A stretch of DNA of 64,000 nucleotides from Patescibacteria group bacterium UBA7435 (lineage in GTDB: Bacteria > Patescibacteriota > Minisyncoccia > Phycocordibacterales > UBA918), in assembly GCA_002477545.1 (NCBI GenBank), contig DLQJ01000016.1, forward strand, positions 24,528 to 88,527, written 5' to 3'. The notes below the pieces were generated by a model that was given only the letters and a program-made list of their open reading frames with translations, was not told the origin of the DNA and ran no database searches. Below, one piece after another: positions 2,625 through 62,925 of this stretch. Position numbers and translations under genes: made by a program. The stretch's first letter is position 1, and the number at the start of each line of letters is the position of its first letter.

Positions 2625-4100
2625 ATGTTCTCTAGAACCAAAAAGGCCTTCGCGGCCACCAAGAAACGTTTTACCTCTTTGCGTAAACGTTTTAAAAGAA
2701 CCCCTCGTACTGAGGAAACTTATTACAGGAGGGATCTTACGCGGGTTTGTTTATTTTTGCTTTTTGTCTTCATTACATACACAAAGGTACCAAACCCATT
2801 CTCTGAAATGATCTTCGGTGGTGTCGCTCTGTTGGTATTGCTACCGTTCATTCTTCCGCTGATTCCCGGCTTTGTAAATGCACTTGCAAACAAGCCTAAT
2901 GTTAAGCGGATCAAAACTAATGAGTCCATTGCTGAGCTAAACACGCAAGATGAAGACGAAATTGAACCAATCGTGACAGTTCGAGTTAATACCACAGATG
3001 ACTACAAACCTCACACTCTTGCATTTTTTACCTTCCTTGAACCAGGACGAGCAAAAATAATTGAGCGTGGCGATCGATTCATCCGCATACTTATGCGTTA
3101 TGACGATCATTCGTTTCGTGGAGAGACATCGCTTCGAACAAAAACGAGTACTGGCAAAGATCTTGCAAAAGGGCCTATTGCGCGCAATGAAGCTGCCTTC
3201 TGGGATGTTATAAAAACACCTAAAGGTGAACTTGATACACATCCTATATCAACTTCGTTACGCAGAGGTCATTTCGATCTTGTATGGCTTTGGTCTCGCT
3301 ACGTGTACCGGATCACTGGTGCTGTTTTTACCGGCATACCGCCGTTTCAAACAGTACGAACTTACAAGCTTTCTCGTCTTCTGAAAGTTCCTGCCGAAAA
3401 AGGTGGGTACGACTTTGAAGTAGAGACTGACTACAGTGATCATTTTCGGGCTTCATATTTCCAGTTCTTTGTTCGGATTGATGAGGCAGAAACCCAAGAC
3501 CAAGCGCCTTTGGATATTGACTTTGCCGCGACACTTCGTGTGCAAAATCCATACCAAACAGCGTATGAAGCAGCCGATTGGTCTACCCAATTTACAACTG
3601 CTTTGACTAATGTGATTCTCAATCACATTCGAGGTCTCACCCGTAGTGAGGTTACTGCTGAAGATACTAGTGATGCTAGTTATCATGCCAAAAGGCTTTC
3701 GTCAGCTGGCATGAGAATCAATAAGGGCGATAAAACAAGTCACATCATTGCAATTCCAAAATTTGGACTTAAAATGGATAAACTTGAAACGCTTAGTATC
3801 AAAGTAGCAGACAAGGAGCTTAAGGAAGCTCTTGCCGGGATCGCTAAATCAGAAGCTCGTGCAACTGCACGAGTAAATGAAGGTGACGCAGAGGCTGCAG
3901 CACAAGGAGCACTCATGAAGAAAGCAGCAACTCACGGTCGCTTTGGCGAGCTTGTAGTTACTACCGAACGTGATGTCCGTACAGCAAAAGCTGCGGGCGT
4001 AAACGGTGGTAGCGTAATTGTAAACACAGGAGGACAGCAAGGAGGGGTAGATTCCAAAACTGCATTTCTCCGGGAAAGTCTTGAAAGGATAAACCCATGA
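2625..4100 (+). CDS. Membrane protein with SPFH/band-7 (flotillin-like) domain (tentative)
   Basis: 491 aa with N-terminal TM segment; LEPGRAKIIERGDRFIRIL resembles the start of the SPFH core; C-terminal Ala/Glu-rich coiled region (EARATARVNEGDAEAAAQGA) typical of flotillin-like proteins; strong RBS. Confidence 0.4.
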   Translation: MFSRTKKAFAATKKRFTSLRKRFKRTPRTEETYYRRDLTRVCLFLLFVFITYTKVPNPFSEMIFGGVALLVLLPFILPLIPGFVNALANKPNVKRIKTNESIAELNTQDEDEIEPIVTVRVNTTDDYKPHTLAFFTFLEPGRAKIIERGDRFIRILMRYDDHSFRGETSLRTKTSTGKDLAKGPIARNEAAFWDVIKTPKGELDTHPISTSLRRGHFDLVWLWSRYVYRITGAVFTGIPPFQTVRTYKLSRLLKVPAEKGGYDFEVETDYSDHFRASYFQFFVRIDEAETQDQAPLDIDFAATLRVQNPYQTAYEAADWSTQFTTALTNVILNHIRGLTRSEVTAEDTSDASYHAKRLSSAGMRINKGDKTSHIIAIPKFGLKMDKLETLSIKVADKELKEALAGIAKSEARATARVNEGDAEAAAQGALMKKAATHGRFGELVVTTERDVRTAKAAGVNGGSVIVNTGGQQGGVDSKTAFLRESLERINP

Positions 4101-4843
4101 CAGGAGTAATAGTTGGATTTGTAGTCCTGGGAATTATAGCGTTGATTGTTATACTTTTCGGGACTCTCGTCTTTACCTCCGCCCTTGCGGGCGGAGGCAT
4201 TACTGCAAGATTACCCAACATGGGTAACTTCACAAAGCCTTTTCTCTTACTTCTTGGAATTGGATTAGCTTTGTATTTTGGGCCTACGGTTTTTTCAAGC
4301 CTTAGCTCTAAAAATTGGATGCCTGATATCTCACTCTGGTTAATTATATCTCTGCTGGTAACAGCGGGACTTATCGCAGTTGGATTTCTTGGTCTCTACA
4401 GAGAACCAGAGATCAGCAATGCTGCAATGTGGTTTGTCAGGATTTTGATTGCCATCTTTACACTTATTTCCATCAGCTGGTTCCTTTGGGGATCAGAAGC
4501 TGTGGAAAATCGGTACGAAGATATACAAGATTGGAAATGGGAAAACTCATGGTTTTCTTCAAACCCAACGCCAGGAACCACTGAAGTCACTCAAGTGGTC
4601 TACATGGGTCGTGCAAACGGTTCTGTATATACTTTAAGTGATGAATACTGGACCATGTTTGACTGGCCTGACAACGGCTACTGCGTTCATGTTCCAGGTA
4701 ATACTGCAGGAGTTCTTGACCGTGCTAACGACGGTCGAGATGAATACTCCCTACTTAGTCGTGTTGCTGGGAAGAAAGTACGCGTGTATACGCTTGCTCC
4801 TGGTGAATCGATTGGGGACTATACATGTCCCAAGCTAACATGA
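4097..4843 (+). CDS. Polytopic membrane protein with C-terminal soluble domain (possible NfeD-like partner of the SPFH protein)
   Basis: 248 aa with 4-5 N-terminal TM helices; ATGA stop/start overlap with the upstream ORF indicates translational coupling. Confidence 0.4.
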   Translation: MTGVIVGFVVLGIIALIVILFGTLVFTSALAGGGITARLPNMGNFTKPFLLLLGIGLALYFGPTVFSSLSSKNWMPDISLWLIISLLVTAGLIAVGFLGLYREPEISNAAMWFVRILIAIFTLISISWFLWGSEAVENRYEDIQDWKWENSWFSSNPTPGTTEVTQVVYMGRANGSVYTLSDEYWTMFDWPDNGYCVHVPGNTAGVLDRANDGRDEYSLLSRVAGKKVRVYTLAPGESIGDYTCPKLT

Positions 4844-4893: not shown

Positions 4894-5262
4894 TTATCGG
4901 TTGTTTGAGGGTACATTTGGAATGTTTTGGATATCTTGATCATCTGAGAATCCAAGTCCTCCAGCAATCAAGTTTACAATACCAAATACTGAAACCATGA
5001 TAACGAATCCTACAATCGCGTATACCATCAGTTTCTTTCCTTCTTCCCGTGAGTCTTCGTCTCCACCTCCAAGGATGAAGTACTTGAAGATACCGTAAAT
5101 GAATACAAGTAGTGCAAAAGCAAATACCAACGGGATCAATGTTCCGTTAATAAATGAGGAGATATCATCAACGAAATCGTTGATTCCACCAAACTGTGCA
5201 GCTGCAACACCTGGAAGTACCATAAGTGCCAGTGCCAGCGTATAGATACTAATTTTTTTCAT
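4894..5262 (-). CDS. Pilin-like small membrane protein, paralog 2
   Basis: Signal peptide MKKISIYTLALALMVLPGVAAA, then helix, IYGIFKYFILGGGDEDSREEGKK motif, then helix. Confidence 0.5.
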   Translation of the reverse strand: MKKISIYTLALALMVLPGVAAAQFGGINDFVDDISSFINGTLIPLVFAFALLVFIYGIFKYFILGGGDEDSREEGKKLMVYAIVGFVIMVSVFGIVNLIAGGLGFSDDQDIQNIPNVPSNNR

Positions 5263-5352
5263 ACTCTGCATTATCATAAATTTATAAGTTGATGTGTCTA
5301 TTATACAAGATTTTTACGTATATTAAATGTATATACTCCATTGTGTGCATAT

Positions 5353-5602: not shown

Positions 5603-6025
5603 TTACGAAGTTATTTGTCCTACAGTACCAGTAATCACTGTAAGTAGCACGTTTGCACCTAAGATCAACAATCCACCAATAAGTGCGTAGAGTAGCGCAT
5701 TATGTGCTCTTTTTATCGTCTCAGCGTTACCTCGTGCGGTTACATACAAGAACCCCGCGTAGATAATAAAGAACACCACAAACGGTATTGCAAAGATTAT
5801 GAGAATATCAATAATCGCTTGGAAGAACGCAGGGATGGTGCTGATACTGGAATCCAGAGGATTAAGCAGCTGACCACTTCCTGGTGTTATGCTAGGCCCT
5901 GAACCTATGCCATCAGTTCCGCTAGGACCGGACCCTGTACCACCACCAGTTCCACTAGAACCAGATCCTAGTTTCCCAAATGTAATTAATGGAAAAAGTA
6001 ACAAGACTATCAAAAAATACTTCAT
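5603..6025 (-). CDS. Pilin-like small membrane protein, paralog 4, with Gly/Ser/Thr-rich N-terminal extension
   Basis: Signal peptide, low-complexity GSGSSGTGGGTGSGPSGTDG linker, then the conserved helix-YAGFLYVTARGNAETIKR-helix module. Confidence 0.5.
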   Translation of the reverse strand: MKYFLIVLLLFPLITFGKLGSGSSGTGGGTGSGPSGTDGIGSGPSITPGSGQLLNPLDSSISTIPAFFQAIIDILIIFAIPFVVFFIIYAGFLYVTARGNAETIKRAHNALLYALIGGLLILGANVLLTVITGTVGQITS

Positions 6026-7338: not shown

Positions 7339-7905
7339 TTATATCTTACGTAGTGCTAATCCGTAGTGATGATCCCCCGCATCAAAAGATCGATCAAAGG
7401 TAAAACCTTGTTGTTCAGCAAGTGCCCGAACAGTTTCCTCAGTAACTACAGCATCAGGCTGTGGACCTAAGCCACCAAATGATTCTGACCAGTCAATAAT
7501 AAATAACTTCCCGCCACTGCGTAGTGTCCGAGCAAGCTCTTGCAAGGCAACCGCCTGTTCTTCAAACTGAAAGAAAGTGTTAACCACAATTGCAGTATCA
7601 AGTACGCCATCAGGAACCTTAGTACCTCCAATGTCTTCAACGTCGCCCCATAGTGGCCGCACTTGCGTCAGACCTTTGGTTCGTGCAATTTCGCCAAGTT
7701 TTTCTACTAAGTCTTTTTGAATTTCAGACACATATACCACACCTTCTTTCCCAACAAGCTGTGCGAGCACTTCCATAAAGTACCCACTGCCTGCACCAAA
7801 ATCAGCAACAGTATCTCCCTCTCGAATATGGAAATGTGTAGCAACCACCGCAGGCTCAACAAACCGCCCCTGCAAATTAGGTGTCACCGATGAAGTATCT
7901 AACAT
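7339..7905 (-). CDS. Class I SAM-dependent methyltransferase
   Basis: Motif I DFGAGSGYF and Rossmann-fold pattern. Confidence 0.7.
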   Translation of the reverse strand: MLDTSSVTPNLQGRFVEPAVVATHFHIREGDTVADFGAGSGYFMEVLAQLVGKEGVVYVSEIQKDLVEKLGEIARTKGLTQVRPLWGDVEDIGGTKVPDGVLDTAIVVNTFFQFEEQAVALQELARTLRSGGKLFIIDWSESFGGLGPQPDAVVTEETVRALAEQQGFTFDRSFDAGDHHYGLALRKI

Positions 7906-8063
7906 AGGGATAGTATACCAGTACCGATCTACATATATAGGTGAGGATGTAGAGAACAGTGGTGATCTGTTGTGATTTTTTACAAGGTGTATTATTAAGT
8001 TGTTGGATACCTTAACTGATATACGTCCCTTGGGAAAAGTCTCACGACGCCCTTCAATAATTC

Positions 8064-8094
8064 AAAAGGGATGACCTTGGTCATCCCTTTTTTC
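8064..8094. terminator. Bidirectional terminator hairpin
   Basis: aaaagggatgaccttggtcatcccttttttc. Confidence 0.5.
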
Positions 8095-8128
8095 TATTCA
8101 AATTTTAAAATACAAAGTCCAGTTTGGC

Positions 8129-8255
8129 AAAAATCTCTAGAAATTGCGTGAGATGTGCGGAAGACAAGAAAAAAGACCCGAGCGGGACACGTGTCCAGCG
8201 AGGGTCTTTTTATCGCAGTCTGACAACGCAGATTGCGTGATTTCTAGAGATTTTT
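8129..8255. repeat. MITE-like intergenic repeat, copy A: 16-bp terminal inverted repeats enclosing a terminator-like hairpin; abuts the gyrA stop codon
   Basis: TIRs aaaaatctctagaaat / atttctagagattttt; internal gaagacaagaaaaaaga motif plus ggacacgtgtcc hairpin and T-run; ~75% identical to the copy at 57601-57730. Confidence 0.55.
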
Positions 8256-10728
8256 AGAAATAGACGATTGAAGCGATGGAATCACCCGCTCGCATCTTCA
8301 TCACCTTCACCCCTTGCGTATCTCGTCCAAGCGTCGGAACATCCTTAAGCGGTAGCTTAATCACCTGTCCTTTCTTGCTCATTACCACCAACTCTCCTTC
8401 TTTTCGATCTTCCAGAGTAAGCGCTGCTGCTCCAACTACTTTTCCAGTCTTAGAGGTTACCTTTGCAGTCTTAATACCACTTCCTCCACGATTTTGTGTT
8501 TTGTATTCTTTTGCGTGAGTAGTTTTACCAAATCCATTTTCCATTACCACCAAGATCTCTCGGTCGGCCTCTCCCTTCTTAAGCACATCAGCAGAAACGA
8601 TATGGTCATCCTTCTTCATCTTCATACCCGTAACTCCAGCTGCAGTACGCCCCATTTGACGCACATCTTCTTCTTTAAAGCGGATTGCTTGTCCATTGTA
8701 TGTAATAAGAGACACCTCATCACCTGCACCAACAAATGATGCCGCAATTAACGAGTCTTCTGATTTAAGCGTAATCGCAATAAGTCCGCTTCGTCGTACG
8801 TCCTTAAATGCTGACGCATCAGATTTCTTGATCACACCGTTTTTTGTCACCATCATCAAGCTCCAGTCTCCCTCCCAATCTTCTTTACGTACCGGAAGTA
8901 CCGAAGTAACACGCTCATCAGCGGTCATAGATAAGAAGTTCATGATTGACTTACCTTTAGTTGCTCGACGTCCTTCAGGAATCTCATACATCTTGCATTG
9001 GTATACCTTTCCTTTATCAGTAAAGAACAGAAGGTCACTGTGTGCTGAAGTAGTTAGAAGTGTTGTTACCACATCTTCTTCTTTGGTATTAAGATCAACC
9101 ACACCAACACCACCACGTTTCTGTGTTTTGTATTCTGATGGGTTGGTTCGCTTTACGTATCCACCCTGCGTAAGCACCAATACACTTTCTTCGTCGGCGA
9201 TAAGATCTTCAGGACTCATGTTTTTCACACCTCCCTTTACGATCTTAGTACGTCGATCGTCACCAAACTTCTGTGCAGCCTCAGCAAGCTCGGACTTCAC
9301 AATCCCCATCATCTTCTTCTTGTTCTTAAGAATTGCTTCGAGTTCTTTAATGAGCGTTTGCAGAATTGCTAACTCATCCTCAATCTTCTTACGCTCAAGT
9401 CCTGCGAGCTTCTGCAATCGCATATCAAGAATCGCCTGTGCTTGCACCTCAGAGAATTTAAATTCCTTCATCAATGCAGCGTGTGCTGTTGGCACATCCT
9501 TTGCTGCTCGAATAAGTTTAATGATCTTATCAATATGATCCAGTGCCTTCTTCAGACCAAGCAAGATATGCTCTCGATCTTGTGCCTTAGTCAGGTCGTA
9601 TTGTGTACGACGCTTGATTACATCAGCTCGATGCTTAATGTACTCCTCAAGAATCACCTTTAATGAGAGTGTCTGTGGCACACCGTTAACCAACGCCACC
9701 ATGTTGTAATGGAACGTATCTTCAAGTTGTGTGTGCTTGTATAGTTTATTTAAAACAGTCTGTGGATTTCCAGTAGAACGTAGGTCAATTACTACACGAA
9801 TATCTGAAGTAGACTCATCTCGCATTTCTTTAATACCCTCAATCTTCTTATCGCGCACAAGGTTTGCAATCTTCTCCTGCATGTCCGCCTTGTTCACACG
9901 GAATGGGATAGAGGTAATGATGATTGAGAAGTTTCCTTTCTTGTCTTCTACTATCTCAGCTTCACCACGCACTACCACTCCTCCTTTACCGTTAGCATAT
10001 GCGTGTGCGATTGCCTTTTTATCAAATGCTACTCCTCCCATTGGGAAGTCAGGGCCTTGCACAAACTTAAGTAGATCATTAGTCGATGCTTCAGGGTTGT
10101 CAATCAAATGTTCAACAGCTGCTGCAATTTCTCGCAGGTTGTGAGGAGGGATATTTGTTGCCATTCCTACGGCAATACCAAGAGTACCCATCAAAAGAAG
10201 GTTCGGTAGTCCGGCAGGAAGTACCTCTGGCTCTTTCTTCGTCCCGTCAAAGTTTGGACGCCAGTTTACCGTGTCTTTTTCTAGATCACGTAACATCTCT
10301 TCAGAGATCTTCGACATTTTTGCTTCAGTATATCGATATGCAGCAGCTGAGTCACCATCAATAGAACCAAAGTTTCCTTGTCCGATAACCATTGGGTACC
10401 GAGTGGTAAACTCCTGAGCAAGCTTTACCATTGATTCGTACACAGCTGTGTCCCCATGCGGATGGAAACTACCAAGAACGTCCCCAACTACCGTTGCAGA
10501 CTTTCGAAATTTTGCAGTTGAGGTTAGACCATTAAGACGCATCGAGTATAAAATACGTCGGTGCACAGGCTTCAGACCATCACGAACATCAGGCAGAGCC
10601 CGCGATGTAATCACTGACATTGCGTAATCAAGATATGCTGTACGCATCTCATCAGCGATATTCTGAGGAATGATCCCACGAATGTTTTCAGGTGCTGCGC
10701 TGTCTTCCTTAATAGTCTTTTTCGGCAT
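8254..10728 (-). CDS. gyrA: DNA gyrase subunit A
   Basis: 824 aa; N-terminal GyrA pattern ([26 protein letters not shown]) and C-terminal beta-pinwheel repeats. Confidence 0.95.
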
Positions 10729-12005: not shown

Positions 12006-12315
12006 AATGGCACTAGTATACAGCAAGACCTACTTTTGTGTATATATTTACAGAATGTGTACATGACTTAAAGTAAAAGCATTATCAGGTCGTAACACTT
12101 TAAAAACTTGACAAATCTGTCTGAAGGTGTTAAAGTAGTTGCAGTAACGAGTATCAAGACGTGTGTATTACGTCTAGTGCCCAGTACCTTAACGATTACT
12201 GACTTGTATGTTAGACGAGTAACGAGTGTTTGAAGACGGAACGCGTATTGTTCCAAATTATTTAGAATACCCTCCTCTCTTCCTGCAATTTGCTGAATTG
12301 TAATTCAGGAAGAAT

Positions 12316-12350
12316 AAAGGCTGTCACAAATTTGTGACAGCCTTTTTTAT
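12316..12350 (+). terminator. Rho-independent terminator on + strand with no upstream + gene (ends a candidate sRNA)
   Basis: aaaggctgtcacaaatttgtgacagcctttttt; putative promoter TTGACA-17-TAAAGT at 12108-12136. Confidence 0.45.
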
Positions 12351-12573
12351 TGCACATTTCACTATATATAGTATAGTAGCGCCACTTCAAATGAAGTTTA
12401 CTACCGAGCGAACGAGCGTCGCAGAAATGTTTACATTTCTATGACCGAGTGAGCGAAGGAAGGAACGCAGTTATTAATTTCTAGCGACACACGTTAAATC
12501 CCGCGCTCACGGACTATGGCCAGAGCATCGGTTGCGCGGACGCGTGTCGTCGGATACAAACACATATTTTATT

Positions 12574-14313: not shown

Positions 14314-14332
14314 ACGTGCAGTATAGCAAACG

Positions 14333-27157: not shown

Positions 27158-27266
27158 AATGTAATTATTGTATCACGTTAATTGATATAGCATCGATGCT
27201 ATATAATACTTCCACTTCCCATACTAAGTTACGCCAAGTATACTGTTAATGAAAAGGAGTCACTCC

Positions 27267-27911
27267 ATGATTATAGAAAAAACAATACAATTTGTTCAAG
27301 AAACACTCGGTGGGGCTGAAGGTGGTCACGACTGGTTTCATATTGAGCGTGTCTGGAAAATTGCTAAGCACATTGGTGAAGTTGAAGGTAGCGTAGATAT
27401 GGAAATTGTAGAGCTTGGTGCTCTACTTCACGATATCGCTGATTCCAAATTTCATAACGGGGATGAAGAGATTGGGCCAAAAACTGCAAGGATCTTCCTT
27501 GAGTCGCAGAACTTTACTGAAGAAAAAATTATTGCAGTAGAAAATATCATTCGACATATTTCATTCAAAGGAAGTATCGAGGGTCAGAAGTGGACCTCCC
27601 CTGAGCTGAACATAGTACAAGATGCCGATCGCATCGATGCACTCGGAGCAATCGGTATCGCACGGACCTTTAACTACGGAGGACATAAAGGGCGAGCCCT
27701 CTACAACCCGGCGATCCCTCCGAATCTCAACATGAGTAAGGACGAGTATAAAAAAACTACCGCTCCTACACTCAACCACTTCCAAGAAAAACTATTTCTA
27801 TTAAAAGACTTGATGAACACCAATACAGCGAGGCAGATGGCAGAAAAACGGCATGACTTTATGATTACCTACGTTGATCAGTTCTTGGCAGAATGGGACG
27901 GACAAGAATAA
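27267..27911 (+). CDS. HD-domain phosphohydrolase
   Basis: H...HD motif (GGHDWFHIERVW...LLHDIADS); AAGGAG RBS 7 nt upstream of the chosen ATG. Confidence 0.65.
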   Translation: MIIEKTIQFVQETLGGAEGGHDWFHIERVWKIAKHIGEVEGSVDMEIVELGALLHDIADSKFHNGDEEIGPKTARIFLESQNFTEEKIIAVENIIRHISFKGSIEGQKWTSPELNIVQDADRIDALGAIGIARTFNYGGHKGRALYNPAIPPNLNMSKDEYKKTTAPTLNHFQEKLFLLKDLMNTNTARQMAEKRHDFMITYVDQFLAEWDGQE

Positions 27912-27955
27912 AATAAAAAACGGCACCTACATGGGTGCCGTTTTTATTTTATTCT
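27908..27955. terminator. Bidirectional terminator (extended AT-flanked palindrome)
   Basis: aataaaataaaaaacggcacctacatgggtgccgtttttattttatt. Confidence 0.6.
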
Positions 27956-29748
27956 TGCAAAAACCCTCCTGCTTGATGCTCCCACAATCGCTGATATGTT
28001 CCACCTGACTGAGTCAACTCGTCATGTGAACCATCCTCTACAATCTTCCCTGTTTCCAATACTAGAATTCTGTCCATTTTACGAAGTGTTGAAAGTCGGT
28101 GTGCTACGGCAATCACGGTCTTTCCTTCCATAAGAATTTCTAGTGCTTTCTGGATCTCAACCTCACTCTCACTATCAAGTGCAGAAGTAGCTTCATCAAG
28201 TACTAAGATCGGTGCATCTTTAAGCATCGCGCGCGCGATAGCTACTCGTTGCTTCTGTCCACCAGAAAGCTTAATGCCTCGTTCCCCTACTAACGTATCG
28301 TATCCAGTCTCTAGCTGCATGATGAAATCGTGAGCCTGTGCTTTTTGTGCAACTGCGATAATTTCCTCATCAGTAGCATCAGGTTTTCCATATGCGATAT
28401 TTTCACGAATCGTTCGGTGGAACAATAATGGCTCTTGTGGAACTACTGCAATATTTTCACGTAATGAATCTTGGGTTACTTGTGAAATATTCTGTCCATC
28501 AATCAAAATGTCTCCACTATCAATATCGTGTTGTCGCAGTAAGAGGGAAACGAACGTCGTCTTCCCTGCTCCTGAAGGACCTACCAAACCAATTCGCTGT
28601 CCTGGTTTAATGCTAAGCTCGAAGTTATCAAAAACGGCATTGGTTCCATACTCAAACTGAACCTTATTCCAAGAAATTGCACCCTTTGCAACCACTAAAT
28701 CTGACGCATTTGAAACATCCTTAATTTCCCGATCGACTAATATTTCACGTAAGCCTTCTTCCACATTCCCATATTCTCGAATAAATCGATTCATCGCATG
28801 ACCAATAGTCACAAACATATACGCAATTCGTCCGAGTAAACCAAGGACTAACACGAGTGTGCCTGCAGTCATTGAGCCTTGTGCAAGAAGTGCGTACAGC
28901 AATACCAGTACAACTCCAATCATTATGATAGCGAAGCAGGTGTTAGCGAGCATTATTAATTCACCAAACATTGATTGCTTCATATCTTTATGTGCTCGGT
29001 CAGTGAAGACAGATCCAAGGCGATGTAACTCGAAGCGACGTTGCGAGAATTGTCGAACTGCTGAAATGTTAGTGATGGTGTCCACCCCTTCTCCTCGAGA
29101 TTTCGAAGCGGCGGTAGCATACGAAACCACCAACGGTCGACGTTTTTTAACCGCAATAATGTTGAACACAAGCACTCCCAAGAAAATACTCAGCAAGATA
29201 AATCCGATACGGAAATCAATCGTGAAGAATAACAACAAGGTTACTGTTAAACCAATAGATTCTGAGAAAAAGGTCCACAACAACTGGAACATTAATCCTG
29301 CACTGCTATCAACTGCATTTGAAACCTTATTTGAAAGTGCACCTGCGAAACGATTACTGAAGTAATTATGACTATGAGTAGTTAAATAATCATAAAGTTT
29401 AGAGTATCCGTCTTTATGAAACTTAATGATCCAACGTATTGCAGTAAACCCACTTAATCGATACAAAAGACCGTTACCAGCTGAAACCAGCAAGAACAAT
29501 CCTCCCCATAGATATAGAACTTCTTTTTGCTCCGCCAGTGACTCTGCAAGTGTAAAATTATCAACAAGTTTTGCTGAAACATAAAAGATCATTATGTTTA
29601 ATGTTTCTGCGGCAATAACAAGAGAGAACGATACCAGACCAAGAAATTTATACTTACTCCCCAAATACCACAAAAACCGTAGCGGTGTATTAGGAATACT
29701 TCCCGTATATGGCGCTTTTATAGCGCTCTGTTGTTTTGCAGTATTCAT
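27949..29748 (-). CDS. ABC transporter, fused permease/ATP-binding protein (MsbA-like exporter)
   Basis: Six-TM N-terminal domain; Walker A GPSGAGKTT, signature LSGGQKQRVAIARA, Walker B ILVLDEATSALD. Confidence 0.85.
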   Translation of the reverse strand: MNTAKQQSAIKAPYTGSIPNTPLRFLWYLGSKYKFLGLVSFSLVIAAETLNIMIFYVSAKLVDNFTLAESLAEQKEVLYLWGGLFLLVSAGNGLLYRLSGFTAIRWIIKFHKDGYSKLYDYLTTHSHNYFSNRFAGALSNKVSNAVDSSAGLMFQLLWTFFSESIGLTVTLLLFFTIDFRIGFILLSIFLGVLVFNIIAVKKRRPLVVSYATAASKSRGEGVDTITNISAVRQFSQRRFELHRLGSVFTDRAHKDMKQSMFGELIMLANTCFAIIMIGVVLVLLYALLAQGSMTAGTLVLVLGLLGRIAYMFVTIGHAMNRFIREYGNVEEGLREILVDREIKDVSNASDLVVAKGAISWNKVQFEYGTNAVFDNFELSIKPGQRIGLVGPSGAGKTTFVSLLLRQHDIDSGDILIDGQNISQVTQDSLRENIAVVPQEPLLFHRTIRENIAYGKPDATDEEIIAVAQKAQAHDFIMQLETGYDTLVGERGIKLSGGQKQRVAIARAMLKDAPILVLDEATSALDSESEVEIQKALEILMEGKTVIAVAHRLSTLRKMDRILVLETGKIVEDGSHDELTQSGGTYQRLWEHQAGGFLQE

Positions 29749-37082: not shown

Positions 37083-37143
37083 ACCCACACCAACCAAAGC
37101 GCGGCATAATTTGTCGCGCTTTGTACTGGTATACTTAAGCAAC

Positions 37144-42774: not shown

Positions 42775-42956
42775 ATAGTGTGCGTACTCTACCTTAATCC
42801 GGTACCGAGTGCAAAGAAATATCCCTGTCTTAATCGGCAAAATTCTGAGGATAGTTCGGGAAACTAGTTGAAAACTAGATGAGTCATATTTTATTATATG
42901 GTGAATGAAGTTTTCAATGTAGTGCCGAAGAAATATTCGAGAATTTTGTTGATTAT

Positions 42957-44633
42957 TTAAAGTACATCGTCCTGCGACACCACAACTTCGGTCTTGAACA
43001 AACGTCCTTTAAATGATTTAAAGACTTCAGACAACTCAGGAGAGCGCACTACATAGTATGTTAAAATCACCCCAAGAATACCGGCGAGTGCCCCCATAAA
43101 CCCTTGTAAGAAAATACCAATAAATGTTTCTTCATCAATTCCGAAAATAAAGAAGTTTAATGCGGCGTATGCACAAAATCCTCCAACCACGGCGGCAAGC
43201 ACTGACCGAAACGCGTGTAACGGAATCCATGCTGTGTCGAATGAGAACGTCCGTGCGGCAACAATCATGAGTACGCAGACTTGTAAGATAATTGCGACAC
43301 TGTAGGCGGCGGCAATGGTGAGTACCTCAGAACCAGCAACGGCATTGGTACGCATAAGCACTCCAATAGCAGTGTGTGCCTCAGGAGATGCGACATACCA
43401 TGCATACAAAGAGTACGTAAGCCCAACTGCGCTTATTGATCCAAAGAGCGTCACAAGAAACGGAATCTTGGTATACCCTCCTGCATAAAATACACGCACC
43501 AACAGTAGATTAACTGCCTGTGCAAAAAGCGAAATACACAACAACGCAAGTACTGCGGCAGTTAGACGTGTGTCTCCCCAGTCAAACGCTCCACTTCCAA
43601 GTACCACACGCACCATTTGTGCACGAAGGACAATAATTAATCCAATCACGGGAACGGACCAAAAAATAATATGTCGTAAGGCGGTCACAATGTGTATCCG
43701 AAACGCGTCCATTTTCTTTTGCGCATACAAATCAGCAAGCAAAGGAAACGCAGCTATTGAATAACTCGCTCCAATGATTGCCAGCGGTACTGACTGAAGA
43801 TTGTATGCAAACTGAAACACAGCAACTGACCCAACGGTCATCAAACTTGCAATACCTACCAAAATCAACAAAACAATCTGATGCATTGCCAAGGTTAATG
43901 CGCGAGGAATCGACACCTTGAGTATCGATCCAATAAGTAACCAGTCAAAATTGGTGACTACCCCAAAGGAAAGGTCACTTTGGCGCACCAGTGGGAGCTG
44001 TACGAGCATGTGCCCTAGTGCCCCAAAGACTACTCCCCACGCAATACCAGAGACCCCTATAACAGGATACAGAAAAATAATACCTAGGATAATACCGAGA
44101 TTATAAATTAGCGGACTTATTGCATACAAAACGAATCGATGTCCAATTTGAGTAATCACACCAAAGAGACTTGAGACACCAAGCAGTAACGGTTGCAGCA
44201 ACAGCACACGCAATACTGCAGTAATCTCGGGAACCTGTTCAAGCATGCCAGGGAATACTACTGGCACAATATAGGGTGCCAGTACCCAGACTAATCCAGC
44301 AAGGATCGTGTAGAAAATAAGAAAGAGTGAAAATACTTGCCCGAGCACCAACTTCGCCTGCGAAGAATCGGAAGCGGTAATACGAGAAACAACAAACGGA
44401 ATCAGTACGTACACCGACAGCGTTGACGCGAACAATACATAGAGCAGATCAGGAATACGAAATGCGGCGTAATAGATATCGAGCTCAATACCTGCACCAA
44501 ATTGGTGCGCAAGCATTCGGTCACGCACCAAAGCCAACAACTGAGAACCGAACGCAAATAATGCAAGAACATACGCGGCCTGATGCAGACCGCGTACTTC
44601 TTTATACATCATTTTAATCACCCGCTTCACCAT
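42957..44633 (-). CDS. murJ: Lipid II flippase MurJ (MviN family)
   Basis: 558 aa with 14 predicted TM helices and a MurJ-like N-terminus (LALVRDRMLAHQFGAGIELDIYYAAFRIPDLLYVLF). Confidence 0.85.
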   Translation of the reverse strand: MVKRVIKMMYKEVRGLHQAAYVLALFAFGSQLLALVRDRMLAHQFGAGIELDIYYAAFRIPDLLYVLFASTLSVYVLIPFVVSRITASDSSQAKLVLGQVFSLFLIFYTILAGLVWVLAPYIVPVVFPGMLEQVPEITAVLRVLLLQPLLLGVSSLFGVITQIGHRFVLYAISPLIYNLGIILGIIFLYPVIGVSGIAWGVVFGALGHMLVQLPLVRQSDLSFGVVTNFDWLLIGSILKVSIPRALTLAMHQIVLLILVGIASLMTVGSVAVFQFAYNLQSVPLAIIGASYSIAAFPLLADLYAQKKMDAFRIHIVTALRHIIFWSVPVIGLIIVLRAQMVRVVLGSGAFDWGDTRLTAAVLALLCISLFAQAVNLLLVRVFYAGGYTKIPFLVTLFGSISAVGLTYSLYAWYVASPEAHTAIGVLMRTNAVAGSEVLTIAAAYSVAIILQVCVLMIVAARTFSFDTAWIPLHAFRSVLAAVVGGFCAYAALNFFIFGIDEETFIGIFLQGFMGALAGILGVILTYYVVRSPELSEVFKSFKGRLFKTEVVVSQDDVL

Positions 44634-50987: not shown

Positions 50988-51716
50988 ATGGCACGGCACG
51001 TAAAAAACAACAAAAACAAGCGACACGGTGTTGCATTCTGGGATCAGGAATACACAAACGCCGAACATCTCTCAATGTCAGTTGAGGCTGGTTCTGATTT
51101 GAAAAAATTTACCCGATGGTTAGAGCGTCAAACCAAGCGAACCTTACTGAACCCAACAAGTTCAGCAATTGACATGGGGTGTGGTAACGGCCGAAACTTA
51201 CTCTATCTTGCCAAGGAATACGGTATGCATGGTGTCGGATACGATTCTTCAAGTGCTGCTATTAAAGAAGCAAAGACAATTTCTGAAGGAACTAATCTCC
51301 GTTATGAAGTGCGCACCATGGCAGGAGCTATTACTGAGCCTGACAATTCTCAAACATTTGCTCTGGATATGATGAGCTCCCACTTCCTCAAAAAAGAGGA
51401 TCGTGCGATGCTACGTGACGAAGTACACCGAGTACTCAAACCAGGTGGTTGGTTGTTTATGAAGACGTTCCTCAAAGATGGTGACATTCACACCAAACGG
51501 CTCATTGCAGAAAAGCCGGGGACCGAAGATGGATCATACATCCATCCAGTAATTGGAGTGCAGGAATTTGCCTACGGTGAACAAGAACTTATTGAATTTC
51601 TTGAAGAGAAATTTATTGTGCACAAGGCCTACCCTTCTCACAAACACGTCTCCAAAGGTAAGGCGCTGAAGCGTCGTACTATTTCCATCTATGTGCAGAA
51701 AGATCCATTTGTATAA
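50988..51716 (+). CDS. Class I SAM-dependent methyltransferase
   Basis: Motif I DMGCGNGRN and motif post-I. Confidence 0.7.
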   Translation: MARHVKNNKNKRHGVAFWDQEYTNAEHLSMSVEAGSDLKKFTRWLERQTKRTLLNPTSSAIDMGCGNGRNLLYLAKEYGMHGVGYDSSSAAIKEAKTISEGTNLRYEVRTMAGAITEPDNSQTFALDMMSSHFLKKEDRAMLRDEVHRVLKPGGWLFMKTFLKDGDIHTKRLIAEKPGTEDGSYIHPVIGVQEFAYGEQELIEFLEEKFIVHKAYPSHKHVSKGKALKRRTISIYVQKDPFV

Positions 51717-51728
51717 AGAGCATGAAGA

Positions 51729-51764
51729 CACAAAAAATCACTGCCCGAGGGCAGTGATTTTTTG
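51729..51764. terminator. Bidirectional terminator
   Basis: acaaaaaatcactgcccgagggcagtgattttttgt. Confidence 0.65.
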
Positions 51765-51777
51765 TGTGTAACGAGGC

Positions 51778-53068: not shown

Positions 53069-53099
53069 AAGTATACCAAAAAATAACGATCACTTATAT

Positions 53100-53757: not shown

Positions 53758-54093
53758 TTATTCTGTATTCTGTGCAAGTGCTTCTTGAGCTAGTGCAGTC
53801 ATTTCTTCAGCATTGTCTAAAGCTTTTTCTGGCACTGACCACCAATTTTTAATAATTACTGGATCTTTTTTATCTTTACGCGTATAGGTAAATTGCGTAG
53901 AGCCCATTTTCTTATATTTATCTTGTAGCGCAGGGTCAGTCACTTTGAAATATATTGTTTCCATCAAAATAACCCCAAGTTGTACACCAGACACTTTAAG
54001 TAGTACCCCACCAAACATACGGGTAGTTTGTATAGGCCCGACAGAGGAAAGGAGGTCGAGAGTGTATTCAAGAAACTCTTTTGATGTGCTCAT
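53758..54093 (-). CDS. TfoX N-terminal domain protein
   Basis: TRMFGG motif characteristic of TfoX_N; 111 aa. Confidence 0.55.
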   Translation of the reverse strand: MSTSKEFLEYTLDLLSSVGPIQTTRMFGGVLLKVSGVQLGVILMETIYFKVTDPALQDKYKKMGSTQFTYTRKDKKDPVIIKNWWSVPEKALDNAEEMTALAQEALAQNTE

Positions 54094-57600: not shown

Positions 57601-57730
57601 ATCTAAGTAAGAGAATTGTGTGAGACGCAAGGAAGACAAGAAAAAAGAGCCGAGCCGTACTTAACGTACGGTGAGGCCCTTTTTCTCGTAGTCTAACGAA
57701 GTAGATTGCGTGACTCTGTTACTTAGAGAT
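57601..57730. repeat. MITE-like intergenic repeat, copy B, abutting the pyrG stop codon
   Basis: TIRs atctaagtaagag / ctctgttacttagagat; shares gaagacaagaaaaaaga and gattgcgtga blocks with copy A; internal hairpin ccgtacttaacgtacgg plus T-run. Confidence 0.55.
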
Positions 57731-57733
57731 GAT

Positions 57734-59395
57734 TTATTTGCTTTCGTAACTTGCACGGATGAAAGCTGTGAATAAAGGATGAGGATCCAACGGCCGTGCC
57801 TGCAATTCTGGATGATACTGCACTCCTACAAAAAATGGATGAACTTCTGTTGGTAGCTCCATGGTTTCCATAAGACGTCCGTCTGGTGACTTCCCTGAAA
57901 AGATAAGTCCCTCATTTTCAAGCTCCATGATGTATGCAGGGTTCACTTCATACCGGTGTCGGTGTCGTTCAAGAATATCTGTTTGTTTGTATGCCCTTGC
58001 AACTACTGAACCCTTTTGCAAAACCGCAGGGTACTGCCCAAGACGCATAGAACCTCCCATATCTCCCTTTGCGATTTTCTCTTTCTGTTCATCCATCACG
58101 CCCACAATAAGATTCGCTGCTTTGGGGTTAATTTCTTCGGTACTGGCATCCTTCTTTTTTACTACATTTTGTGCAAATTCAAGCACTGCCAATTGCATAC
58201 CGTAACAAATACCAAAATATGGAATTCGATTTTTTCGCACATACTCGATTACTTTAAGTTTTCCATCAACGCCCGTCTTACCGAACCCTCCAGGAACCAA
58301 GACACCGTCATATTTCTTAAGCTCTTTAAGTTTCTTACTGTCGGCAAAATCGTGTGACGATAAGTATGTAATGTTTGGCTTGAGTCCTAACTTGTATGAT
58401 GAATACTTAATTGCCTCAAGCACTGAAATATATACGTCAGAAAGCACAAAATCTCCTGAACTGAAATACTTACCGATTACCGCGATCTCTACAGTATCCT
58501 TCGTATTTTTAGACTTTGACACAAATCGTTTCCATTCTGAAAGGTCAGATTTTTTAGAACATGAGAGATCAAGCATTTCACACAAACGATCTGAAAGACG
58601 ATCTTTTTCAAGATTTAAAGGAATGTCGTAGATGCTTTCTACATCAGGTGCAGATATGACGTCTTCTGCATGCACATTACAAAACGTTGCGATTTTTTCT
58701 TTACGTTTCTGGTCTACACCAACTGGTGAGCGAGCGATGATAATATTTGCAAAAACTCCTGCGCTATTGAGCATACGTACAGCAGTTTGGGTTGGTTTTG
58801 TTTTCATCTCACCAATACTTCCAGGCACCGGCAGGTAACTAACCATAACCACACCTATATCCTGAGGGTTTTTGGTCTTCATCATACGTATTGCTTCCAA
58901 AAAGAGTACGTTCTGGTATTCGCCGACTGTCCCACCTACTTCAATAAGTACAACGTCCGCACCTGCACCTTCTCCTGCTTTTTGTATACGGGAGATTACC
59001 TCAAGTGGAATATCTGGAACAACCTCTACATTTTTACCCTTGTATCCAAGATTACGCTCTTTTGCGATTACGGCTTGATATACACTCCCTGTGGTCATGT
59101 AATTAATGCCTGGAATATCAATATTTAAAAATCGTTCATAGTTCCCCATGTCTTGATCTGTTTCAAGACCGTCTTTAAGCACAAAACATTCACCATGTTC
59201 AGTAGGGTTCATGGTCCCCGCATCCACATTTACATACGGGTCAATTTTTACTGCGGTAACAGAAAGTCCACGTCCTTGTAGGATTTTTGCGATCGATGAC
59301 GACGCTACTCCCTTTCCAACTCCACTCATTACTCCACCGACGACGAAGATGTATTTTGTGTTCTTCGTCTTCTTTGTCTGTGCTTTCTTAGGCAT
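57734..59395 (-). CDS. pyrG: CTP synthase
   Basis: N-terminal synthetase domain (VVGGVMSGVGKG) and C-terminal GATase (GICYGMQ, His/Glu). Confidence 0.95.
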   Translation of the reverse strand: MPKKAQTKKTKNTKYIFVVGGVMSGVGKGVASSSIAKILQGRGLSVTAVKIDPYVNVDAGTMNPTEHGECFVLKDGLETDQDMGNYERFLNIDIPGINYMTTGSVYQAVIAKERNLGYKGKNVEVVPDIPLEVISRIQKAGEGAGADVVLIEVGGTVGEYQNVLFLEAIRMMKTKNPQDIGVVMVSYLPVPGSIGEMKTKPTQTAVRMLNSAGVFANIIIARSPVGVDQKRKEKIATFCNVHAEDVISAPDVESIYDIPLNLEKDRLSDRLCEMLDLSCSKKSDLSEWKRFVSKSKNTKDTVEIAVIGKYFSSGDFVLSDVYISVLEAIKYSSYKLGLKPNITYLSSHDFADSKKLKELKKYDGVLVPGGFGKTGVDGKLKVIEYVRKNRIPYFGICYGMQLAVLEFAQNVVKKKDASTEEINPKAANLIVGVMDEQKEKIAKGDMGGSMRLGQYPAVLQKGSVVARAYKQTDILERHRHRYEVNPAYIMELENEGLIFSGKSPDGRLMETMELPTEVHPFFVGVQYHPELQARPLDPHPLFTAFIRASYESK

Positions 59396-62846: not shown

Positions 62847-62925
62847 ATGTTTATGAGTATACCAGTGTATATTTTGTTTTCAATTTTTTCATTCTCTGGT
62901 AGGATGTTGCAATCCAAGAAGATAC

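Follow-up and report, generated by a model that had tools for sequence, protein, structure and literature searches.

A small family of long-hairpin repeats at gene ends in CPR bacteria

Palindromic intergenic repeats of 100-150 bp are known from several bacterial groups, among them the Correia (CREE) elements of Neisseria, the ERIC (IRU) repeats of enterobacteria and the RUP and BOX repeats of Streptococcus; they are co-transcribed with their neighbors and can terminate or stabilise transcripts. The terminal repeats of such families are conserved across copies, in Correia and RUP together with target duplications and IS relatives, and we know of none among the Correia, ERIC and RUP/BOX families that builds its ends from adjacent coding sequence. 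In bidirectional terminators, including the inverted pairs of DUS (Neisseria) and USS (Haemophilus), an A-tract, a hairpin and a T-tract are shared by convergent genes, and the integron repeats of Vibrio cholerae, at about 125 bp, are similar in length to the element described here. The CPR bacteria (Patescibacteria) have tiny, tightly packed genomes, and to our knowledge almost nothing is known about their non-coding elements. Two further systems are close in structure: REPINs form hairpins in ssDNA or RNA, with a spacer that is conserved in structure only, and some of them have been co-opted as terminators (PMC3337134), and attC sites fold on the bottom strand only (PMC2727003).

The window, by which we mean the whole 64-kb stretch of DNA that was analysed, had been described in a first-pass annotation as carrying two copies of a repeat, about 75% identical, at 8129-8255 (copy A) and 57601-57730 (copy B). 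These coordinates are right, and the identity is about 77% (MAFFT mean column identity), with cores of about 100 nt (8142-8240 and 57614-57713) that are 75-83% identical; the local alignment score of A and B is 50, while 1000 dinucleotide shuffles yield 8.7 +/- 1.4 and a maximum of 15 (z = 29). The blocks said to be shared, AATTG(C/T)GTGAGA, GGAAGACAAGAAAAAAGA and AGATTGCGTGA, are all present, and the second of them, an 18-mer exact in both copies, occurs nowhere else in the window. In copy A it occupies 8159-8176 and reads UCUUUUUUCUUGUCUUCC on the mRNA strand, where it is the terminator U-tract; AGAC within it pairs with GTCT at 8219-8222, the corresponding pair in the related contig L063 being AGGC/GCCT. 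Copy A, which folds better on the + strand, lies antisense to gyrA (824 aa, 8254-10728, minus strand), and copy B, also on the + strand, lies antisense to pyrG (CTP synthase, 553 aa, 57734-59395, minus strand); both genes were identified through precomputed Pfam hits, as were ftsX and ftsE. Their proximity to stop codons also stands, as the gyrA TAA (8254-8256) overlaps the right arm of A by 2 nt and the pyrG stop (57734-57736) is 3 nt past the right arm of B. The window is a metagenome contig of a CPR bacterium, and the closest named relatives of its PyrG and GyrA come from Paceibacteria, Kaiserbacteria or Minisyncoccia MAGs.

Copies A and B belong to a small, previously undescribed family of long hairpins of about 130 bases in CPR bacteria. 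A third copy in the window and eleven in related contigs, all of them Paceibacteria-type metagenome contigs (about 0.4 Mb of related sequence scanned), were recovered with exact patterns and with a covariance model, R1, built from copies A-D, making fourteen copies at five genes (gyrA, pyrG, murJ and those for a methyltransferase and a SpoU methylase) in the window and seven contigs. Exact-pattern scans returned copies C and D, each after pyrG, in L046 (a Minisyncoccia MAG) and L062, respectively: one of seven hits in genome_contigs was a true copy, and eight hits in metagenome_contigs included one new copy and a duplicate of A. Copies A and B score 136.5 and 143.3 bits with R1, and a search of the related contigs with this model added copies E and F in L062, after the methyltransferase gene and the SpoU methylase gene, copies at the orthologous gyrA sites of L063, L065 and L075 (two in tandem, 12242-12477), and copies at the pyrG sites of L049 (decayed) and L076 (two in tandem, 3344-3633). 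The third window copy, G (42831-42955, + strand), is diverged, with a core identity of 37-47% and an R1 score of 28.7 bits obtained on the + strand only and with filters off. Its arms, TAATCGGCAAAATTCT (42831-42846) and AGAATTTTGTTGATTA (42940-42955), pair with two G.T wobbles on the + strand, and the stop codon of murJ (558 aa, 42957-44633, minus strand) is 1 nt from its proximal arm. Copies F and G are both diverged (R1 40 and 29 bits), and model-fitted alignments lean towards structure; weaker covariance-model matches (13-23 bits) were discarded as ordinary hairpins.

The core identity is 75% between A and B and 83% between A and C, and paralogous copies are not closer to each other within than between genomes, except for E, which is closest to D; therefore copying between loci occurs, but rarely. 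Three pattern scans of viral contigs gave chance coding matches and no copy, and blastn gave no match in plasmid and phage collections. With Rfam 15, only tRNAs reached the gathering score in the window and no family matched the element, and at E <= 10 the surroundings of copy A yielded weak terminator-driven matches only. The window has eleven tRNA genes, scattered singly.

The whole element is one long hairpin. In the 14-copy model alignment, 93.6% of 516 cells are paired, compared with 36-48% when the partners are slid, and double changes are present at 32 of the 38 pairs, a number reached by none of 500 shuffles; the corresponding values for ten copies aligned with MAFFT are 91.3% of cells (33-48% with slid partners) and 30 of the 38 pairs. 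It had been noted earlier that the internal hairpin differs in sequence between A and B but still pairs, and that a T-run follows it; this is correct, an A-run precedes it in each copy, and preservation of pairing under sequence change is borne out by covariation of the entire element. Stretches of 136-139 nt comprising A and B fold far more stably than their shuffles (z from -6 to -10).

The fold depends strongly on the strand. For copy A, the minimum free energy is -65.6 kcal/mol on the + strand and -49.9 on the - strand (z = -10), for copy G -43.4 versus -29.9 kcal/mol on the other strand, and in 13 of 13 full copies it is lower on the antisense strand, by 2.6 to 24 kcal/mol. There are 61 G.U pairs that form on the antisense strand only, versus 8 on the mRNA strand. 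Some of the former lie in an 8-bp helix between two TTGCGTGA blocks (8144-8151 and 8233-8240 on the + strand in copy A), which look like a direct repeat but base-pair with each other, and in which four G.U pairs form on the + strand only; without this helix the counts (MAFFT alignment) are 19 antisense versus 7 on the mRNA strand. The counterparts in copy E, TTGCGTTAC and GTAACGTGA, show a compensatory change. We rejected the idea that TTGCGTGA is a protein-binding direct repeat or an uptake sequence, as it is not enriched outside the elements and the change in E speaks for a helix. A tandem G.A/A.G loop on the antisense strand (8180-8181 with 8200-8201 in copy A) provides the only near-invariant positions outside the tracts. 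Both the window GC skew and the fact that D and E face opposite ways within one locus speak against mutation bias as the cause of the asymmetry.

Ten ordinary terminators of the window have no comparable strand bias, and this bears on the simplest explanation, namely that the copies are ordinary intrinsic terminators that became alike by chance or convergence. Ordinary terminators here do usually start at stop codons, and several are bidirectional, as is that at 27894-27967, common to the convergent genes 27249-27911 (+, HD domain) and 27949-29748 (-, ABC transporter), with 18-nt arms overlapping both stops. However, the z of 29 for the A/B alignment, the non-stem positions included in the homologous 100-nt cores, covariation of the lower stem well outside the terminator and the strand asymmetry refute this explanation, to which we assign hardly any probability.

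Comparison of the copies shows that the strand on which the fold is selected is the complement of the mRNA. Covariation of the lower stem requires one molecule that spans both halves, and the wobble evidence indicates that it has the antisense sequence; it could be ssDNA, antisense RNA or read-through RNA. The twofold conservation of TTGCGTGA and that of the G.A loop, at unpaired or wobble positions, hints at a sequence-specific partner. A small protein can be dismissed, since B and C do not preserve the 34-codon ORF found in copy A.

Orthologous sites were also compared. The window and L063 share 94% identity in GyrA, 58.5% at the third codon positions of gyrA and about 50% in the intergenic region downstream; the gyrA element is identical at 120 of 127 positions, and six of the seven differences make up three compensatory pairs, with two compensatory double changes involving the proximal arm. 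Similarly, the cores of B and D are 88% identical, and pyrG third positions 48.8%. The element evolves far more slowly than synonymous sites, and these comparisons show purifying selection on its entire length as a single long hairpin, not on the terminator alone. Orthologous copies predate the saturation of synonymous sites, and by this measure the copies are old and have come down by orthologous descent rather than by recent insertion. Retention is not uniform: the copies of L049 and L065 are decayed (56-57%), the element is absent from the pyrG sites of L052, L053 and L077 and from the gyrA site of L067, a different hairpin occupies the gyrA site of L074, and the L067/L077 genome is without the element at both gyrA and pyrG. 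In element-free relatives a plain terminator can be found at the same place, as in L067 after gyrA and in the window (51722-51765) at the site corresponding to copy E.

A small treble-clef zinc-finger gene (PF23477; 57110-57493 in the window, 7103-7504 in L062) follows pyrG in most relatives, with or without the element; L062 has extra genes between the two, and a longer lysine/alanine-rich paralogue is present (3932-4681). Near the same loci in element-free relatives we also noticed mobile or defence genes (L052 12199-13701, L053 3909-5479, L067 22402-22475, L077 2012-5529), comprising large serine recombinases next to the pyrG zinc-finger gene, a PF01797 Y1 transposase, PemK and AbiEii, and in the same set of loci a DGR-like bAvd and reverse transcriptase beside a 1332-aa protein.

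We then considered the origin of the outer arms. Terminal inverted repeats of about 13-16 bp had been reported, and both copies have them: in A the distal arm AAAAATCTCTAGAAA (8129-8143) pairs with the proximal arm TTTCTAGAGATTTTT (8241-8255) at 15 of 15 positions, and in B ATCTAAGTAAGAG (57601-57613) pairs with CTCTGTTACTTAGAGAT (57714-57730) with bulges. Their sequences, however, differ between A and B, the distal arm of A also being unlike those of C and D, and the arms of copies A, B, C, D, E, F, G and H1 are different in each case and correspond to the gene end beside them. The arms in L046, L062 (D, E and F) and L076 enclose the native stop codon, and those in L076 are 25 nt long, 96% complementary, and span the last seven pyrG codons and the stop. 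The C-termini of GyrA (..IVYF*) and PyrG (..YESK*, in the window ...SYESK*) are the conserved native ones, that of GyrA being unaltered by the element, and therefore it is the distal arm that is the copy. The comparison shows the outer stem to be an inverted copy of the stop-codon region of the host gene and not a transposon end. Long-range inverted repeats at other gene ends have 10-11-nt arms with a mismatch, which is the chance level.

Some of the arms preserve gene ends other than the live one. The proximal arm of copy B holds a fossil pyrG end at 57719-57727, TCT AAG TAA on the mRNA strand, which can be compared with TCT AAR TAG, the live pyrG end in L046 and L062; the downstream copy in L076 holds a longer one, GCC TCC TAC GAG TCT AAG TAG (21 nt, ASYESK*), from a different pyrG allele. 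Both fossils sit behind a live pyrG end with different serine codons, which points to recombinational replacement of gene ends and stacking of elements, and the occurrence of the L076 fossil in a tandem pair suggests that gene ends and elements may be swapped together by recombination. The methyltransferase adjacent to copy E in L062 (3020-3040) ends in ..TAYE* (ACA GCC TAC GAA TAA), and its window orthologue (51700-51720) in ..DPFV*; the L062 ending is similar to GCN TAC GAR at the end of pyrG, and it looks as though the element had carried a few pyrG codons along.

The host-derived arms are a difficulty for the first-pass annotation's view that the repeat is a MITE, here taken as a non-autonomous element with terminal inverted repeats that was mobilised by a transposase, landed at stop codons and was recruited as a terminator. 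A dispersed repeat family of small palindromes with inverted ends is real, its presence is polymorphic at orthologous sites, and tandem copies exist. Yet the inverted ends vary among copies, no direct target-site duplication was seen at any flank read, with A (..TTTGGC / AGAAATA..), B, C and D sharing none and the duplicated flank of these four copies being inverted, the orientation is always tied to the gene, and the copies are old, orthologous and under selection. Domains of transposases, integrases, HUH enzymes and reverse transcriptases were absent from the 60 window ORFs and ten L062 ORFs scanned, so no cognate transposase came to light in them, and the family had no match in the phage and plasmid collections or viral contigs. 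The many near-identical copies expected of a burst are not seen either, the window having three in 64 kb with core identities of 37-75%. A classical MITE, with two of its defining traits contradicted, is very unlikely.

As to termination, the apices of A and B are credible as good intrinsic terminators in the mRNA direction. The apical hairpin of A with its A- and T-tracts (8169-8211), which contains the tandem G.A/A.G loop, resembles a bidirectional terminator module, with -16.5 kcal/mol in the sense direction, where 8 of the first 9 tail nucleotides are U, and -18.6 kcal/mol and 6 U in 9 in antisense, the direction in which the apices of A and B are rated slightly weaker; that of B (57641-57684) likewise has A- and T-tracts, -16.5 kcal/mol in sense and 8 U in 9. 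A simple terminator scanner missed both because of their internal loops. The earlier claim that the element supplies the terminator of its gene is thus credible, as a prediction, for gyrA and pyrG, but recruitment as a terminator is an overstatement, because the apex of copy G (-8.6 kcal/mol, 4 U in 9) falls short of an intrinsic terminator. Copy G keeps its long hairpin with no usable terminator, indicating that the conserved trait is the hairpin rather than termination alone. Wherever a flank could be read (in all copies but a partial one in L075), a gene reads into the element and its stop codon adjoins or overlaps one and the same side of it. Each copy is oriented with its neighboring gene, and in L062 this is seen for genes on either strand of the contig; at copy D, the stop of a convergent gene is 7 to 13 nt short of the distal arm. 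Ordinary hairpin terminators of the window also start near stop codons, at -12 to +9 nt, and the placement is therefore not special to the element.

Among the known systems, the element resembles the REPIN/REP/BIME repeats of Pseudomonas and enterobacteria in being an extragenic sequence of about 90-130 nt that forms one long near-perfect hairpin with an apex conserved in structure only (PMC3337134), and shares with REPINs a long vertical persistence and, in some of them, flanking A- and T-runs and a co-opted role in termination (PMC3337134). REPINs, however, consist of two inverted conserved REP palindromes, are associated with a RAYT gene and occur in tens to hundreds of copies, whereas in our element the conserved TTGCGTGA blocks are repeated on the same strand and depend on G.U for their pairing, the host gene is the source of the outermost stem, the ORFs scanned in the window and L062 included no RAYT, and there are about three copies per 64 kb. 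With attC it has in common an imperfect palindrome directly after or over a stop codon, a fixed orientation and conservation of structure above sequence (PMC2727003), as well as a functional fold on the strand complementary to the coding strand (PMC2727003), which we take as a working resemblance only. Membership in attC is ruled out by the core sites, as R'' (RYYYAAC) and R' (GTTRRRY) are at neither end of copies A-D; furthermore, neither an integrase among the window ORFs scanned nor a cassette array was found, the copies behind gyrA, pyrG and murJ are 15-35 kb apart, and these hosts are essential housekeeping genes in conserved synteny. Like the Correia, ERIC and RUP families, ours is a small palindromic intergenic repeat, unlike them in its host-gene-derived ends. 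As in DUS and USS terminators, a short conserved word is found on both sides of a hairpin at gene ends, but here the word is not over-represented elsewhere in the window, it is direct rather than inverted, and about 45 nt more per side are conserved and paired. The element lacks what defines MITEs, attC sites and, so far, REPINs; it would work like a terminator-bearing REPIN or an ERIC-type repeat and belongs to neither the REPIN nor the attC family.

These likenesses raise the question of a substrate for an ssDNA enzyme, in which a RAYT-like Y1/HUH transposase or a tyrosine recombinase, its gene lying elsewhere in the genome, would recognise the antisense, or bottom, hairpin and move or recombine it, and the element would be kept only alongside that enzyme. 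Such a substrate would fit the strand-specific fold with its conserved wobble pairs and tandem G.A loop, the conserved blocks near the hairpin base, the patchy, genome-wide all-or-none occurrence (L067/L077), the decay in L049 and L065 versus the strong conservation in L063 and L062, and the tandem pile-ups at the same sites, and it has precedents in REPIN hairpins, some of them terminators (PMC3337134), and in the bottom-strand fold of attC (PMC2727003). Nevertheless, no such enzyme is encoded in the 64-kb window or the ten L062 ORFs scanned, and the sole Y1_Tnp seen (PF01797, in L067) belongs to a genome without the element. The attC core sites are lacking, the hosts are housekeeping genes in conserved synteny rather than cassettes, the apparent copy number is low, and outer arms copied from the host are predicted by no REP or attC mechanism. 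We consider a dependence on such an enzyme improbable, though not to be neglected.

A structured RNA might account for the same fold, either as a cis-acting element of the 3′ UTR or of read-through transcripts (an RNase III site, an mRNA stabiliser or a REP-like ribosome-stalling stem) or as an antisense sRNA ending at the apical terminator. In its degree of covariation the element equals a good RNA family, its G.U and tandem G.A pairs are of a kind typical of RNA, purifying selection exceeds that on synonymous sites, the stem begins at or over the stop codon, and the antisense left block UUGCGUGA is Watson-Crick complementary to UCACGCAA in every element-bearing mRNA. On the other hand, the mRNA strand folds poorly, the favoured strand has no conserved promoter, the apical terminator should keep transcription from either side out of the half beyond it, the host genes have no function in common and no Rfam family matches. 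An antisense sRNA with its own promoter was set aside and kept as a weak rival, given that -35/-10 boxes are inconsistent and the flank differs between A and its 94% orthologue; no promoter outside the palindrome is conserved, and the flanks of A and its L063 counterpart cannot be aligned. A structured RNA is, in our judgment, a rather doubtful explanation.

On balance, and with no great confidence, we think it probable that the copies form a lineage-restricted foldback family of about 130 nt in CPR bacteria of the Paceibacteria/Minisyncoccia type, built around a bidirectional intrinsic terminator and located exactly at gene 3′ ends. Judging from its sequence, the apical GC-based hairpin followed by U6CUUGUCUU would end transcription of the upstream gene, gyrA or pyrG, in the mRNA direction, and, owing to the A-tract before it, this hairpin could also act for a convergent gene if there is one, as at copy D in L062. 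If the terminator works efficiently, transcription from either side would seldom yield the full-length hairpin as RNA. We infer that only rarely would a new copy form, the core being copied onto a different gene end, after which the palindrome might be extended or corrected by intrastrand fold-back (template-switch) synthesis, of which no intermediate was seen, with selection permitting the overwriting of the non-coding side only. Such copying would explain the inverted coding copies, the seemingly compensatory double changes and the absence of target duplications, and would require no transposase. The element would be kept where it is useful or where a partner exists, and would decay or be lost in sister lineages. 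As a structured element it is well supported, and it would tie together transcription termination, palindromic repeats and strand-specific hairpins, which are usually studied apart, and if the antisense-strand fold is a real single-stranded intermediate, it would offer a tractable case of terminators as heritable, copyable modules and show growth of a palindrome by templated copying of coding sequence.

A further possibility, which we hold to be unlikely and put forward tentatively, is a strand-specific hairpin agent in CPR, made of ssDNA or antisense RNA, that would install itself at stop codons, take its outer stem as an inverted copy of the last codons and depend on a sequence-specific partner, as suggested by the TTGCGTGA wobble helix and the tandem G.A loop. 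If true, its mechanism of mobility or maintenance would be distinct from those of MITEs, REPINs and attC sites. For annotation, it should be kept in mind that apparent terminal inverted repeats at gene ends can be host-derived, and a covariance model is now at hand for finding more copies.

Other features of the window are worth mentioning. Directly after copy A, the minus strand has a promoter-like TTGCCA-17-TAAAAT (8130 down to 8102), with a 12-bp hairpin (8064-8091; T-run on +, TTTT on -) right after it, and the whole site (8064-8130), upstream of the methyltransferase gene at 7339-7905, could act as a short leader or attenuator or give rise to a tiny RNA. Three T4SS-pilin-like genes downstream of gyrA and a gene with the TfoX_N domain of competence regulators occupy 1993-2412, 4894-5277, 5603-6025 and 53758-54093. 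Finally, TATA[CA]T boxes, often as TGnTATACT, are located 6-9 nt upstream of the start codons in about 13 of 64 ORFs (for example 7912-7920, 14320-14328, 53070-53078 and 62856-62864 on the minus strand and 37127-37135 on the plus strand); their spacing suggests leaderless or near-leaderless mRNAs, and the motif also precedes the orthologous genes in L046, L065 and L067.
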